The position numbers and the translations under genes were made by a program. The notes beneath the pieces are model-generated. The model saw nothing but the letters and a program-made list of their open reading frames with translations, made no database searches and was not told the DNA's origin. Positions 1 to 4,716 of a DNA stretch of 4,716 bases are shown piece after piece; positions within the stretch are counted from its first letter, which is position 1; each line of letters opens with the position of its first letter. The stretch lies in IMG/VR virus record IMGVR_UViG_2548876952_000002, positions 1 through 4,716 of that record. One strand, written 5' to 3'. The DNA is from a virus (taxonomy: Duplodnaviria > Heunggongvirae > Uroviricota > Caudoviricetes).

Positions 1-330
1 AATGGCGAGGACGTCAGGCCGGTGGCCGACCGCGTGACCGTGCAGTCTGCCGCCATTGTTGAATATCAGATAAACGCCACGCTTTACCTTTACCCAGGTC
101 CCGAAAGCGAACCCATCCGCGCTGCTGCCGTGAAAAAACTGGAAGCGTATATCACGGCACAGCACCGGCTTGGGCGCGACATCCGTCTGTCTGCCATTTA
201 TGCCGCTTTGCATGTGGAAGGCGTGCAGCGTGTCGAGCTGGCCGCACCTCTGGCTGACATCGTGCTCAACAATACGCAGGCGTCTTTCTGTACTGAATAC
301 CGCGTCGTGACCGGAGGCTCGGATGAGTGA
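1..330 (+). CDS. Baseplate assembly protein J-like, C-terminal part (5' end lies outside the window)
   Basis: Frame 1 is open from nt 1 to the TGA at 328..330; the track ORF begins at an internal GTG (22) but the frame continues to the window edge. Stop overlaps the start of the next gene (ATG 323), as in tightly coupled phage tail operons. The J assignment comes from position immediately upstream of a gpI-like gene and general resemblance to P2 gpJ C-termini, recalled rather than searched. Confidence 0.55.
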   Translation, partial: NGEDVRPVADRVTVQSAAIVEYQINATLYLYPGPESEPIRAAAVKKLEAYITAQHRLGRDIRLSAIYAALHVEGVQRVELAAPLADIVLNNTQASFCTEYRVVTGGSDE

Positions 331-934
331 TTCGCGACTGCTGCCGACCGGCTCATCACCGCTTGAAGTCGCCGCCGCAAAAGCCTGTGCGGAAATTGAA
401 AAAACGCCGGTCAGTATTCGTGAGCTGTGGAACCCGGATACCTGTCCGGCAAATCTGCTGCCGTGGCTGGCGTGGTCATTTTCGGTCGACAGGTGGGATG
501 ATAAATGGCCGGAAGCGACCAAACGCGCTGTTATCCGCGATGCGTATTTCATTCACTGCCATAAGGGCACTATTGGTGCGATTCGCCGTGTGGTGGAGCC
601 GCTCGGCTATCTGATTGAGGTGAGGGAGTGGTGGCAACTCAACGAGGAGCCGGGGACGTTCCGTATCGTTGTTGGCGTGCTTGAGCAGGGTATTACCGAG
701 GAAATGTATCAGGAGCTGGAGCGCCTCGTTGCTGATGCAAAACCGGCAAGCCGCCATCTGACGGGACTGGCTATCAGTTTAAGTACAACCGGCAACATTT
801 TTGCCGGTGCGGGATGCTATCACGGTGACGCCCTGACGGTTTATCCCTACACCCAGGAGGCCATTATTGTCGGAGGGGATTATTTCCAGGCCTCGGCCAT
901 TCATTTAATTGATAACCTGAGAGTAAACGCATGA
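323..934 (+). CDS. Phage tail (baseplate) protein I, P2 gpI-like
   Basis: 203-aa ORF; GGAGG at 314..318 is 4 nt upstream of ATG 323. Start overlaps the upstream stop and its own stop (TGA 932..934) overlaps ATG 931 of the fibre gene (ATGA coupling). Position between J-like and H-like genes matches the P2 order J-I-H-G. Confidence 0.7.
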
Positions 935-2109
935 CAGTGAAATACTACGCCATTCTGACTAATCAGGGCGCAGCACGGCTGGCTAACGCGACGATGCTCG
1001 GCAGTAAGCTGAATCTGACGCAAATGGCCGTTGGTGATGCGAATGGTGTCTTGCCGACACCAGACCCGGCACAGACAAAACTGATTAACCAGAAACGCAT
1101 CGCGCCGCTGAATCTTCTGAGTGTTGACCCGAATAACCAGAGCCAGATTATTGCGGAGCAAATCATCCCTGAGAACGAGGGCGGATTCTGGATCCGTGAG
1201 ATTGGGCTTTATGATGATGAAGGCGTACTCATTGCGGTGGCGAACTGCCCGGAAACGTACAAACCGCAGTTGCAGGAAGGCAGCGGTCGTACCCAGACTA
1301 TCCGCATGATTCTGGTTGTCACGAATACCGAAGCCATCACGCTGAAAATCGACCCATCGGTGGTACTGGCGACCCGTAAATACGTGGATGATGAAGTCCT
1401 GGAATTAAAGCTGTATGTGGATGACCAGATGAGAAACCACATTGCCGCACAGGATCCTCATACCCAGTATGCGCAGAAACATAATCCGACATTTACCGGA
1501 GAACCAAAAGCGCCGACGCCTGCCGCAGGAAATAACACCACGCGGATTGCGACTACTGCGTTTGTTCAGGCCGCTATTACCGCTCTGATTAACGGTGCGC
1601 CAGCCACACTGGACACACTGAAAGAAATTGCCGCGGCCATTAACAATGACCCGAAATTCAGCACCACCATTAACAATGCGCTGTCAGGCAAGCAGCCACT
1701 GGATGAGACGCTGACTCATTTGAGTGGAAAGGATGTTGCCGGCCTTCTCGCATACCTTGGTTTGGGAGAAGCGGCTAAAAGGAATGTAGGGACAGGTGCG
1801 AATCAGCTACCTGATATGGGTAGTTTTATGCTTTCTGCTTCAGTTCCTGGATATCAAAAATTGCCATCCGGTTTAATTATTCAATGGGGGCCAATTGATG
1901 TTCCGCTGACGTCTCAGGACACAGTAACCTATTTTCCGATTGCATTTCCGAACAGATGTCTGCGGGTATTTGCGACTCAGGATTACACTCCCGGCAGTGC
2001 AAATGTTGGCTATATAGCTTGTGCCGGTTATAACCAGGACCCAGTGAAATTTATTTCCAGAGCAGGCGTACCCGGTATCGGTGCTTCATTTTTCGCATTA
2101 GGGTGTTAA
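931..2109 (+). CDS. Tail fibre protein (P2 gpH / Mu S-like): constant N-terminal part (931..1758) fused to variable tip cassette A (1759..2109)
   Basis: 392-aa ORF. The N-terminus ([20 protein letters not shown]...MAVGD...[29 protein letters not shown]...EGSGRTQT) has the conserved pattern of P2 H-family fibre N-termini, and the region around [12 protein letters not shown]...[30 protein letters not shown] is typical of the fibre shaft. The crossover site at 1745..1770 lies inside the coding sequence at the YLGLGE motif. Confidence 0.85.
1745..1770. repeat. Left 26-bp invertase crossover site (hix/gix/cix/pix-like), inside the fibre gene
   Basis: TTCTCGCATACC-TT-GGTTTGGGAGAA: two 12-bp half-sites in imperfect inverted symmetry around a central TT. 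The inner half plus core (1757..1771) is a perfect inverted repeat of 3644..3658. Confidence 0.8.
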
Positions 2110-2135
2110 TTTCTTTTAACTATATGGAGTGAAAA

Positions 2136-2576
2136 ATGAATTACATATATTCCGCGACTACAAACTCTTTCTATCCGCTGGAGATGAAAGAGGATTACAC
2201 GCAAGCTGACTCATGGCCAGATGATGCTGTTGAAGTTGATGAGCAAGTGTATATTGAGTTTTCCGGATTACCGCCGAAAGGAAAAATCCGTATCGCTGGA
2301 GAAAATGGTTTTCCTGCATGGTCTGAAATTCCACCACCAACACATGAGGAACAGATTGCTGCAGCCGAACTGAAAAAGCAGCAATTGATTAATCAGGCCA
2401 ACGATTATATGAACAGTAAACAATGGGCTGGTAAAGCGGCTATTGGTCGTCTGAAAGGTGAGGAACTGGCGCAATATAATTTATGGCTGGATTATCTGGA
2501 TGCACTGGAACTGGTTGATTCCTCCAGTGCGCCAGATATTGAATGGCCTACGCCTCCGGCAGTTCAGGCCAGATGA
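2136..2576 (+). CDS. Tail-fibre assembly chaperone A (P2 gpG / Mu U / Tfa family), partner of tip cassette A
   Basis: 146-aa ORF with GGAG at 2126..2129 and ATG at 2136, 26 nt after the fibre stop. C-terminus ...LDYLDALELVDSSSAPDIEWPTPPAVQAR carries the conserved Tfa C-terminal motif (cf. P2 gpG ending ...NPEWPEMPQ). Confidence 0.8.
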   Translation: MNYIYSATTNSFYPLEMKEDYTQADSWPDDAVEVDEQVYIEFSGLPPKGKIRIAGENGFPAWSEIPPPTHEEQIAAAELKKQQLINQANDYMNSKQWAGKAAIGRLKGEELAQYNLWLDYLDALELVDSSSAPDIEWPTPPAVQAR

Positions 2577-3150
2577 CATCCGGCGCGGTGCTGGTATCTG
2601 TTGCCGTCACCGCGTCAATGTAATCCAGCGCAGCGTTAAGTCGGGCGGTTTCTGCCTGCGTCAGATTCCGTCCGGCCTGCAATTTCAGCTGAATCAGACC
2701 GATGGAAACCATTGCTGCATCAATCAGTGACTGGCGCTGTGCTTCTGCCGCGTCTACTGCGGCGTGATGCTGTGCCTCAGTATCGGTCACCCATTTCTCA
2801 CCATCCCATTTATCGTATGGCGTTAATGGGGCGATAGTGGTTGTATTTTCGGGGTAATCACCCGGAGTTGTGATTTCTTTGGCGTCTCCCGTTTCGGTGT
2901 TATAGACGATTTCTCCGCGATGGTCTGGCACATATTCCCATGAGTTTAAATCCGCAGAGCGGCAGATGGCATAACCAGCTTTATATGTTCCTGGTGCATC
3001 TAAACAGGAACATGCCGGAATACCGACACCAACAGCAAGATATTCAGTTGATGTGGAAATATATTCTCGTGTTTCACCATTATAATTATAGACAGTAATA
3101 TCCCCCGCCTTCGTGGCAATAAACTCGCTATTTAATACGGCATTATCCAT
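2548..3150 (-). CDS. Tail-fibre assembly chaperone B (Tfa / U'-type), partner of tip cassette B
   Basis: 200-aa minus-strand ORF with a GAGGG Shine-Dalgarno about 8 nt upstream of the ATG (complement of 3148..3150). C-terminus ...LDYIDAVTATDTSTAPDVIWPELPEA has the same conserved Tfa motif as chaperone A, while the N-terminal domain is unrelated. Its ATG overlaps the TAA stop of the upstream minus-strand fibre cassette by 1 nt. Confidence 0.8.
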   Translation of the reverse strand: MDNAVLNSEFIATKAGDITVYNYNGETREYISTSTEYLAVGVGIPACSCLDAPGTYKAGYAICRSADLNSWEYVPDHRGEIVYNTETGDAKEITTPGDYPENTTTIAPLTPYDKWDGEKWVTDTEAQHHAAVDAAEAQRQSLIDAAMVSIGLIQLKLQAGRNLTQAETARLNAALDYIDAVTATDTSTAPDVIWPELPEA

Positions 3151-3698
3151 TATGCAGCCCTCACGATGTAATTAAATGAAAGGTTACGAGGGCGCATTGA
3201 TATCCATGCCCCGGTAAAATTATCCTCCGCTGTCCTTTGAGTACCCGTTATGGAGTTATCTGCTGATGCAGGAACATAATCGCTATTATTTCCTGCTTTA
3301 GGATTAGCTGGGTTTCCAACAGTTATAACAGAATCAGCAGTAGCAAAAGCGATACCTACTTTGACATTAGTATTCAGATCGTAACCGTAATAATCCTGCA
3401 AAGCTGTACGAATAAATGTTGCAGCCTGACCACTTAGCAATGAACGCCCCGTATCAATCCCTCTAGAATCATCCCAGCCACGAATAAACTCACCACGTAA
3501 ATCAGGCAATTTATTTGTCGGGTAAGCCTTTGCCAGTTCCGGGTATTCTTCAGCAGAAAAAGCTGCTCCGTTGCATTTCAGCCAGCCTGTTGGAGGTGTC
3601 TCTGAAGGCCACGGAACAGGTGCACCAACAGGTAATGCTGAACCTTCTCCCAAACCAACGTTTATGAAAATGCAGAGATAACGGGCAACTGGCATCAT
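3150..3698 (-). CDS. Alternative tail-fibre C-terminal cassette B (S'v-type, silent in this orientation); functional part is 3150..3656, and the track ORF's first 14 codons (MMPVARYLCIFINV) are probably artefactual
   Basis: From the crossover site inward the minus-strand frame reads GLGEGSALPVGAPVPWPSETPPTGWLKCNGAAFSAEEYPELAKAYPTNKLPDLRGEFIRGWDDSRGIDTGRSLLSGQ..., a collar-type C-terminal fibre domain (LPDLRGEFIRGWDD is the classic motif). The ORF start lies outside the invertible segment and has no convincing RBS; the cassette is in frame with the constant fibre part after inversion. Confidence 0.75.
   Translation of the reverse strand: MMPVARYLCIFINVGLGEGSALPVGAPVPWPSETPPTGWLKCNGAAFSAEEYPELAKAYPTNKLPDLRGEFIRGWDDSRGIDTGRSLLSGQAATFIRTALQDYYGYDLNTNVKVGIAFATADSVITVGNPANPKAGNNSDYVPASADNSITGTQRTAEDNFTGAWISMRPRNLSFNYIVRAA
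3645..3670. repeat. Right 26-bp invertase crossover site (hix/gix/cix/pix-like)
   Basis: TTCTCCCAAACC-AA-CGTTTATGAAAA. The inner half plus core is the exact reverse complement of 1757..1770; the outer half is degenerate (7 of 12 matches to the left outer half). Located 55 nt upstream of the invertase start codon. Confidence 0.8.
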
Positions 3699-3725
3699 CT
3701 CCGGTTTTTATTCAGGGGGATGCTC

Positions 3726-4319
3726 ATGCTTATTGGCTATGTACGCGTGTCAACAAATGACCAGAACACGGAATTGCAGCGTAACGCGCTGGAGTGCGCA
3801 GGATGCGAGCGGATTTTTGAGGATAAAATCAGCGGCACGAAGTCCGACAGACCGGGACTGAAAAAAATGCTCAGAACATTATCAGCAGGTGACACTCTGG
3901 TAGTCTGGAAGCTGGACAGGCTGGGGCGTAGTATGCGGCATCTGGTCATTCTGGTTGAGGAGCTGCGCGAACGCGGCATTAATTTTCGCAGCCTGACGGA
4001 TGCCATTGATACCAGCACGCCGATGGGGCGTTTTTTCTTTCATGTGATGGGTGCCCTGGCTGAAATGGAACGAGAACTCATTGTCGAGCGGACACGCGCC
4101 GGACTGGAAGCAGCCAGAGCCAAAGGTCGTATTGGTGGCAGACGTCCGAAACTCACCGCGAGTGAGTGGGAGCAGGTCGGACGGTTGCTGGCTGCGGGGG
4201 AATCTCGTCAACGTGTGGCGCTGATTTTTGATATTGGCCTGTCCACGCTCTATAAAAAATTCCCCTCATCAGCGACAAAGAATAAATTGTGTCATCCCTT
4301 AGCCAACCGGGACAAATAG
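3726..4319 (+). CDS. pin: Serine DNA invertase, Gin/Pin/Cin/Hin family (small serine recombinase, resolvase/invertase fold)
   Basis: Translation MLIGYVRVSTNDQNTELQRNALECAGCERIFEDKISGTKSDRPGLKKMLRTLSAGDTLVVWKLDRLGRSMRHLV...INFRSLTDAIDTSTPMGRFFFHVMGALAEMERELIVERTRAGLEAARAKGRIGGRRPKLT...STLYKKF is near-identical in motif content to Gin, Cin and especially Pin: catalytic Ser in GYVRVSTNDQ (codon 3750..3752), the VVWKLDRLGRS and GRFFFHVMGALAEMERELI blocks, and a C-terminal HTH. The track ORF starts at ATG 3720 (MLML...), but ATG 3726 gives the canonical MLIGY N-terminus and 6-nt spacing from AGGGGGA (3714..3720). Gene symbol is by family resemblance only. Confidence 0.93.
   Translation: MLIGYVRVSTNDQNTELQRNALECAGCERIFEDKISGTKSDRPGLKKMLRTLSAGDTLVVWKLDRLGRSMRHLVILVEELRERGINFRSLTDAIDTSTPMGRFFFHVMGALAEMERELIVERTRAGLEAARAKGRIGGRRPKLTASEWEQVGRLLAAGESRQRVALIFDIGLSTLYKKFPSSATKNKLCHPLANRDK
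3819..3870. promoter_or_regulatory. Candidate Fis-dependent recombinational enhancer (two putative Fis sites) inside the 5' part of the invertase gene
   Basis: Two 15-mers fit the degenerate Fis pattern G-N13-C with an AT-rich centre: GAGGATAAAATCAGC (3819..3833) and GACTGAAAAAAATGC (3856..3870). In Hin/Gin/Cin systems the enhancer lies within the first ~150-200 bp of the invertase coding region. Exact positions here are pattern-matching by eye; the centre-to-centre spacing I measure (~37 bp) is shorter than the ~48 bp I recall for hin, so this is uncertain. Confidence 0.3.
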
Positions 4320-4378
4320 CCTGACATCTCCGGCACAACTGAAAATATCACTCACCCATTAACCACGGAGTTAAACGG

Positions 4379-4716
4379 ATGAGTGACTATCATCACGGCG
4401 TGCAGGTGCTGGAGATTAACGACGGCACCCGTGTCATTTCCACCGTATCCACTGCCATTGTCGGCATGGTCTGCACGGCCAGCGATGCGGATGCGGAAAC
4501 CTTCCCCCTCAATAAACCGGTGCTGATTACCAATGTGCAGAGTGCAATTGCAAAGGCCGGTAAAAAAGGCACGCTGGCGGCATCGTTGCAGGCCATCGCC
4601 GACCAGTCAAAACCGGTCACCGTTGTCGTACGTGTGGAAGACGGCACCGGCGACGACGAGGAAACGAAACTCGCGCAGACCGTTTCCAATATCATCGGCA
4701 CCACCGACGAAAACGG
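4379..4716 (+). CDS. Tail sheath protein FI (P2 gpFI-like), N-terminal part (3' end lies outside the window)
   Basis: GGAG at 4367..4370 is 8 nt upstream of ATG 4379, and the frame is open to the window end (112 codons). Translation [61 protein letters not shown]... matches the conserved N-terminus of P2-type contractile tail sheath proteins. It is absent from the ORF track only because no stop falls inside the window. Confidence 0.85.

Follow-up and report, generated by a model that had tools for sequence, protein, structure and literature searches.

The 4716 base pairs (bp) of IMG/VR virus record IMGVR_UViG_2548876952_000002 analysed here (positions 1 to 4,716, hereafter the window) come from the tail-fibre region of a P2-like Escherichia coli prophage with a Pin/Gin-type invertible segment. 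As judged from sequence matches and fold, the 116-residue segment that ends the fibre protein in the present orientation (tip A) is a standard receptor-binding domain with the lectin-type fold of the gp53-like proteins and of the R-pyocin "foot". Tip A very probably serves a P2-type fibre as its distal, gp53-like module for receptor binding and is swapped by DNA inversion for a second, currently silent tip (tip B). The sequence-only reading of this DNA had proposed a possible uncharacterised receptor-binding domain, but the family of tip A is curated in Pfam (PF21882), homologues have crystal structures, RefSeq already labels the protein, and YfdL of E. coli K-12 is 98% identical to it.

The 392-residue fibre protein has a PF12571 (Phage_tail_fib) domain at its N-terminus and a match to PF21882 (Gp53-like_C) at its extreme C-terminus, spanning residues 310–392 of 392 and profile positions 1–84 of 84. 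This match scores 68.1 bits with the tip alone and 63.9 bits with the full fibre, against a curated gathering threshold of 24.9 bits. When compared with PDB sequences using phmmer, tip A matched gp53 of the Acinetobacter phage AP22 (4MTM) at 3.6e-5 and the R2 and R1 pyocin fibres (6CT8/6CU2, 6CL6, 6CXB, and 6CL5) at 1.7e-4 to 2.9e-3, with the alignments extending over the core that starts LIIQWG. The fold of tip A is the eight-stranded lectin-type β-sandwich observed in 4MTM and 6CL6. An exhaustive HMMER search returned 3205 representative clusters at E ≤ 1e-3, and PHROGs assigns tip A to tail-fibre families. Although tip A had been described as lacking known motifs, it carries the Pfam Gp53-like_C signature, including FPIAFPN.

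Alignment of 38 non-redundant relatives of tip A revealed a near-invariant scaffold (Gly31, Leu35, Pro36, Gly38, Gln42-Trp43-Gly44, Pro60, Phe63, Pro64, Ala113, and Gly115) and four most variable stretches, at tip residues ~45–58, 66–75, 86–97, and 102–110. From the alignment with 4MTM and the published table of pyocin foot loops (PMC6363177), the stretches 45–58, 86–97, and 102–110 correspond to the loops L1, L3, and L5. By identity to tip A, its full-length relatives group into separate classes, at about 98%, 88%, 77–74%, 71%, 65%, and 47–43%, without a continuum, which suggests that a limited set of specificity alleles circulates in prophages of the Enterobacteriaceae.

In the frame of the fibre open reading frame (ORF), positions 1759–2106 encode the 116-residue C-terminal segment, which begins GLGE, ends FFALGC, and is made up of a conserved neck (residues 1–30) and the gp53-like lectin-fold head (residues ~31–116). 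The cassette boundary proposed at 1759 is well placed, being the first base past the central TT of the left crossover site (1745–1770), and the description of tip A as expressed is right for the orientation of this window, where it is in frame with the fibre. The amino acid string that had been quoted for tip A is, by comparison, 112 residues long and begins at fibre residue 281 rather than 277. Four cysteines had also been counted in tip A; there are three, at tip residues 67, 88, and 116 (fibre residues 343, 364, and 392), and the fourth cysteine of the fibre protein, Cys106, lies within the constant N-terminal domain. As a special trait (a disulfide or metal site), the cysteines were rejected as family-defining on the composition of their columns among the relatives. 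At the position of Cys67, located in the strand following FPN, cysteine is the commonest residue (37%) and is found in R2 pyocin and e14 YcfK, with leucine in AP22 gp53; Cys88 and the terminal Cys116 are restricted to a close subfamily, and alanine and tyrosine dominate these columns in other relatives.

The window holds an invertible tail-fibre switch of the Gin/Cin/Pin/Hin type. Its longest inverted repeat pairs 1742–1771 with 3644–3673. The left crossover site is TTCTCGCATACC-TT-GGTTTGGGAGAA, with the central dinucleotide at 1757–1758 and coding for ...L-GLGE, and the right crossover site is TTCTCCCAAACC-AA-CGTTTATGAAAA, with the central dinucleotide at 3657–3658, AA being TT on the other strand. 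The hix/pix-type palindrome pattern has only two matches in the window, compared with none expected by chance, and the pattern search of the window thus gave no third crossover site of the kind present in the multi-inversion P2-like prophage of enteropathogenic E. coli. Both sites contain the crossover repeat TTGGTTTGGGAGAAG, which has been reported for the e14 P segment (PMC12529663).

In silico inversion of 1757–3658 yielded an in-frame fibre of 444 residues, the last 168 of which are tip B, followed by its putative chaperone TfaB. The inverted junction, which silences tip A and places its start beside the invertase, has counterparts of up to 99.8% identity among E. coli genomes, with at least 80% query coverage in 139 genomes; at least 80% coverage was obtained for the expressed junction, as in the window, in 45 genomes. 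Since the simulated junction and that of the window are both found in real genomes, both orientations exist in nature. Adjacent to the segment is a gene for a small serine recombinase with a resolvase catalytic domain and an HTH_7 domain, the product of which is 86% identical to PinE and the region of which is 85% identical in DNA to e14 pinE. The ORF opens at an ATG at 3720, and the RefSeq homologue begins at 3726 (MLIGYVRV, as in PinE). At its C-terminus the invertase is ~15 residues longer than PinE (199 residues from 3720, or 197 from 3726, compared with 184).

The contrast drawn earlier between the two tips is borne out. Tip A has no match to PF07484 (Collar) at E ≤ 0.01, whereas tip B matches it with E = 6e-16; tip A is also the shorter (116 versus 168 residues, the latter taken from the simulated inversion), and no pairwise similarity between the two was found. 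The ORF listed for tip B (3150–3698, 182 residues) includes a spurious leader of 14 codons (window 3657–3698, minus strand). Because tips A and B differ in domain type and have a chaperone each, they point to two receptor specificities, in agreement with the distinct specificity proposed for tip A.

The chaperones of the two tips, TfaA and TfaB, both belong to the Caudo_TAP family (PF02413), the profile covering residues 8–141 of TfaA and 78–199 of TfaB. The proposal that their N-terminal domains are unrelated is borne out by pairwise alignment: BLASTP found no similarity between the N-terminal parts and aligned the C-terminal ~73 residues at 40% identity. From the profile coverage, however, TfaB is better described as having an extra N-terminal region of ~77 residues and a diverged N-terminal part. 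TfaA is identical to K-12 YfdK at 144 of 146 positions (99%). In the model for Mu Tfa, as North et al. (2019) are reported in PMC9608196, a variable N-terminal domain attaches to the fibre tip, and trimerization is driven by a conserved C-terminal domain. Between TfaA and TfaB only the C-terminal part is shared, and the same is true of TfaA and e14 TfaP, whose partner tip is 34% identical to tip A; this pattern fits the variable-N/conserved-C model as that account gives it. Fragments of R-pyocin fibres needed their own chaperones for solubility (PMC6363177). A phmmer search of PDB sequences with TfaA gave no meaningful match and did not detect Mu Tfa (5YVQ), so that the mechanism assigned to TfaA is drawn from its Pfam membership and the literature. 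The convergent 3′ ends of the TfaA and TfaB genes overlap by 29 bp (2548–2576), as do those of e14 tfaP and tfaE, and the part of the TfaB gene encoding the C-terminus has a G+C content of 0.59, compared with 0.43–0.47 across the remaining segment.

The module exchange suggested for tip A is supported by DNA of tip A and TfaA that is 96–97% identical on different fibre backbones, the identity starting exactly at the crossover site (1746). Cryptic prophage CPS-53 of K-12 is 96.2% identical in DNA over window 1746–2838, which covers tip A, TfaA, and the 3′ end of the TfaB gene (the tfaS remnant), and phage vB_EcoM-720R4 (ON470603.1) is 97.2% identical from 1746 to the end of its record. In both of these the joint reads ...LENL-GLGE and follows an N-terminus of ~95 residues that is e14/Mu-like and common to e14 YcfK, whereas in the window it reads ...LAYL-GLGE and joins the tip to a P2-type shaft of 276 residues. 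Judged by these alignments, the tip module has clearly moved between phage lineages. In vB_EcoM-720R4 (locus 3710–5392) the tip A/TfaA/TfaB module lies behind Mu-like baseplate genes (Mup43–48) on a short fibre of 213 residues; the record stops within the segment, and its second tip and invertase therefore lie outside the record.

Several known systems share parts of this arrangement. In the Mu G segment (S/S′, U/U′, Gin) and the P1 C segment, a serine invertase flips alternative fibre C-termini together with their Tfa chaperones, and the crossover lies inside the fibre gene. The same switch logic applies to the window, where tip B alone is of the Collar type and tip A is gp53-like. Identical in architecture is the e14 P segment (ycfK/stfP–tfaP–tfaE–stfE–pinE), in which a gp53-like tip and a short Tfa are followed by a convergent TfaE-type Tfa and Collar-type tip and then by the Pin invertase. 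The crossover sequence TTGGTTTGGGAGAAG is the same, and identities are 88% between TfaB and TfaE, 86% between the invertase and PinE, and 57% between tip B and StfE; in contrast, tip A and the gp53-like tip of YcfK share only 34% identity, the similarity of TfaP to TfaA is limited to the C-terminal part (60%), the constant part of the e14 fibre is short, and the prophage is defective. CPS-53 (KpLE1) is nearly identical in tip A (117 of 120) and TfaA (144 of 146), but its YfdL tip sits on a short-fibre N-terminus of ~95 residues with a disrupted start and is accompanied by neither tip B, the right crossover site, nor an invertase, whereas in the window tip A is carried by a 276-residue P2-type shaft inside a complete switch. 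The R1/R2 pyocin foot (PA0620; 6CL5, 6CL6, 6CT8, 6CU2, and 6CXB) differs in having extra head and shaft domains and no invertible segment, and its distal loops differ from those of tip A, such that the core specificities of R1–R5 are not transferable. AP22 gp53 (4MTM), the namesake of PF21882, is from a strictly lytic phage of another host that has no inversion switch.

In the mechanism that we propose, fibre residues 1–276 are joined, at the crossover site encoding GLGE, to a neck of ~30 residues and a head of ~85 residues. Tip A would trimerize, with the neck leading into the β-sandwich head, and the variable distal loops (tip residues ~45–58, ~86–97, and ~102–110) would contact the receptor. 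Assembly would be chaperoned by the cognate TfaA, the equivalent of YfdK, which would dock on tip A with its variable N-terminal part and drive trimerization from the C-terminus with its conserved C-terminal helical part. The Pin-type serine invertase would recombine the two 26-bp sites and replace tip A/TfaA by the Collar-type tip B/TfaB, with the outcome that one prophage could yield virions of two host ranges. Whereas the family, fold, boundaries, and switch are read directly from the comparisons above, we infer the trimeric state, the docking of the chaperone, and the receptor from relatives of tip A.

The most likely receptor of tip A, by analogy, is a saccharide of the lipopolysaccharide (LPS) core or of the O-antigen, since R pyocins, for which the loops of the foot have been defined, adsorb through core LPS (PMC6363177). 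Several points weigh against this assignment or the wider interpretation of tip A. The structural model is of a monomer, has moderate confidence, and has a weak region at residues 81–95; tip A is only 28% identical to the pyocin feet, and the specificity loops differ; a literature search for "yfdL" returned no paper on the function of the YfdL protein; and docking places StfE2, a gp53-like chimera from e14, in contact with the porins OmpF and FadL (PMC12529663). Given the low identity and the differing loops, LPS as the receptor is an analogy only. The sequence-only reading had allowed that strong homology to a well-characterised tip with a known receptor would remove the novelty of tip A; the homology to R-pyocin feet is clear, but at this level of identity it does not fix the receptor of this allele.

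A protein receptor for tip A is possible if the contact between StfE2 and porins is real. That a gp53-like tip A recognises an outer-membrane protein instead of an LPS saccharide would accord with the finding that StfE2 blocks adsorption of T2 (PMC12529663), and AP22 gp53 is without a demonstrated sugar receptor. The fold of tip A is, however, that of discoidin and the H-type lectins, and among its relatives the R pyocins, which have been studied most, bind core LPS (PMC6363177). Moreover, the StfE2–porin contact comes from docking alone, and e14 YcfK is 34% identical to tip A. We therefore consider a protein receptor unlikely and favour a saccharide.

The near-identical copy in K-12 MG1655 is yfdL, a gene of the cryptic prophage CPS-53 flanked by the yfdM remnant and by yfdK. 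The yfdL–yfdK stretch of CPS-53 (5703–6805 in its own stretch) matches window 1746–2576 and is part of the yfdONMLK operon. This operon is reported to be transcribed under the control of SrsR, which activates it, and deletion of yfdK raises sensitivity to hydrogen peroxide, an effect of a tail-fibre chaperone for which no explanation was given (PMC3105296, PMC9181523). The e14 gp53-like chimera, in addition, confers phage defence (PMC12529663). Such cases could suggest that tip A in the window, rather than a working virion adhesin, is a decaying or domesticated prophage remnant of use to the host, whether it masks a receptor like e14 StfE2 or contributes to stress tolerance, which has been reported for yfdK. 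The window itself argues otherwise, as its P2-type fibre is full length and in frame, the chaperone and the second cassette are present, and the invertase, baseplate, and sheath genes are intact. Furthermore, an intact P2-like prophage, that of E. coli EFF60, is 97.8% identical across the entire window and complete from the portal, terminase, and capsid genes through ogr, and many genomes show either orientation. A remnant is thus very improbable, and a working adhesin is the preferred reading of tip A. A related speculation, to which we give only slightly more credence, is that the YfdL-type tip recognises a receptor as yet unmapped among coliphages and that the K-12 copy has been co-opted as a surface-acting protein, which might mask a receptor in the manner of StfE2 or be the basis of the oxidative-stress phenotype of yfdK; nothing in the window itself speaks for this reading.

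Tip A is already known, both in kind and in sequence. Complete E. coli genomes carry its DNA in 421 of 5426 cases, nearly always at 95–99% identity, its RefSeq/NCBI label is "gp53-like domain-containing protein", and it is identical to the C-terminus of K-12 YfdL at 117 of 120 positions (98%), "putative protein YfdL" being the name given in one phage record. Only one sequenced phage, vB_EcoM-720R4, has tip A at 98%, and a search of the literature on this phage gave nothing on host range or receptor. That single high-identity phage record, the absence of a Collar domain, and the lack of pairwise similarity to tip B would suit a receptor-binding domain of a novel and uncharacterised kind, with no relation to the fibre tips already known, but this idea is refuted by the PF21882 match and the sequence matches to the solved 4MTM and R1/R2 pyocin structures, because of which we give it virtually no weight.

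Two observations concern the annotation of tip A in databases. Silent cassettes are routinely annotated as stand-alone proteins of ~130 residues that begin with a spurious leader (MMPVARYLCIFINV- or similar), a translation of the flank nearest the invertase that continues across the crossover site, and this holds for most ~130-residue entries named "gp53-like domain-containing protein". The 14-codon leader of the tip B ORF in the window is an artefact of the same type. A 99%-identical partial "gp53-like domain-containing protein" with 113 member sequences carries the NCBI label Staphylococcus aureus, which most likely reflects contamination of assemblies with E. coli, the cloning host.

The features of the window are listed in the table. 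Its conserved parts are 94–97% identical in DNA to P2-like phages, and the DNA of the fibre constant part is ~94–97% identical to P2-like phages and prophages. The G+C content of the P2 backbone is 0.52–0.55, compared with 0.43–0.46 in tip A, the N-terminal parts of TfaA and TfaB, and tip B.

Table. Features of the 4716-bp window with their positions, strands, and supporting evidence
Feature	Positions	Strand	Evidence
3′ end of baseplate gene (P2 gpJ-like)	22–330	+	ORF; "baseplate assembly protein" of EFF60 stops at the same position
P2 gpI-type tail protein, 203 residues	323–934	+	Pfam PF09684 Tail_P2_I, E = 2.9e-56
Tail-fibre ORF, 392 residues	931–2109	+	N-terminal PF12571
Tail-fibre constant part (residues 1–276; baseplate-attachment domain and shaft)	931–1758	+	PF12571 Phage_tail_fib, residues 1–150, E = 2e-62
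Left 26-bp crossover site	1745–1770		Inverted repeat; match to hix/pix-type palindrome
Tip A, 116 residues and stop	1759–2109	+	In-frame fusion to the fibre in this orientation
TfaA, 146 residues, putative chaperone cognate to tip A; YfdK equivalent	2136–2576	+	PF02413 Caudo_TAP, E = 2e-37
TfaB, 200 residues, putative TfaE-type chaperone cognate to tip B	2548–3150	-	PF02413 on residues 78–199, E = 3e-31
Tip B, 168 residues and stop, silent Collar-type alternative fibre C-terminus	3150–3656	-	PF07484 Collar, E = 6e-16
Right 26-bp crossover site	3645–3670		Inverted repeat; match to hix/pix-type palindrome
Pin/Gin/Hin-family serine DNA invertase	3726–4319	+	PF00239 Resolvase, E = 9e-53; PF02796 HTH_7, E = 5e-13
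5′ end of tail sheath gene (P2 FI-like), runs off the window	4379–4716	+	Frame translation; "phage tail sheath protein" of EFF60 at the matching position

As a discovery the finding matters little: its elements (domain family, fold, chaperone logic, and inversion switch) have all been described before, and this sequence already carries an annotation in hundreds of genomes, K-12 among them. What it does permit is a confident annotation of tip A as a gp53-like/pyocin-foot receptor-binding domain. For the P2-like and e14/Mu-like phages, it means that the crossover site, through the codons for GLGE, doubles as the joint at which a tip and its chaperone are swapped between their fibres.
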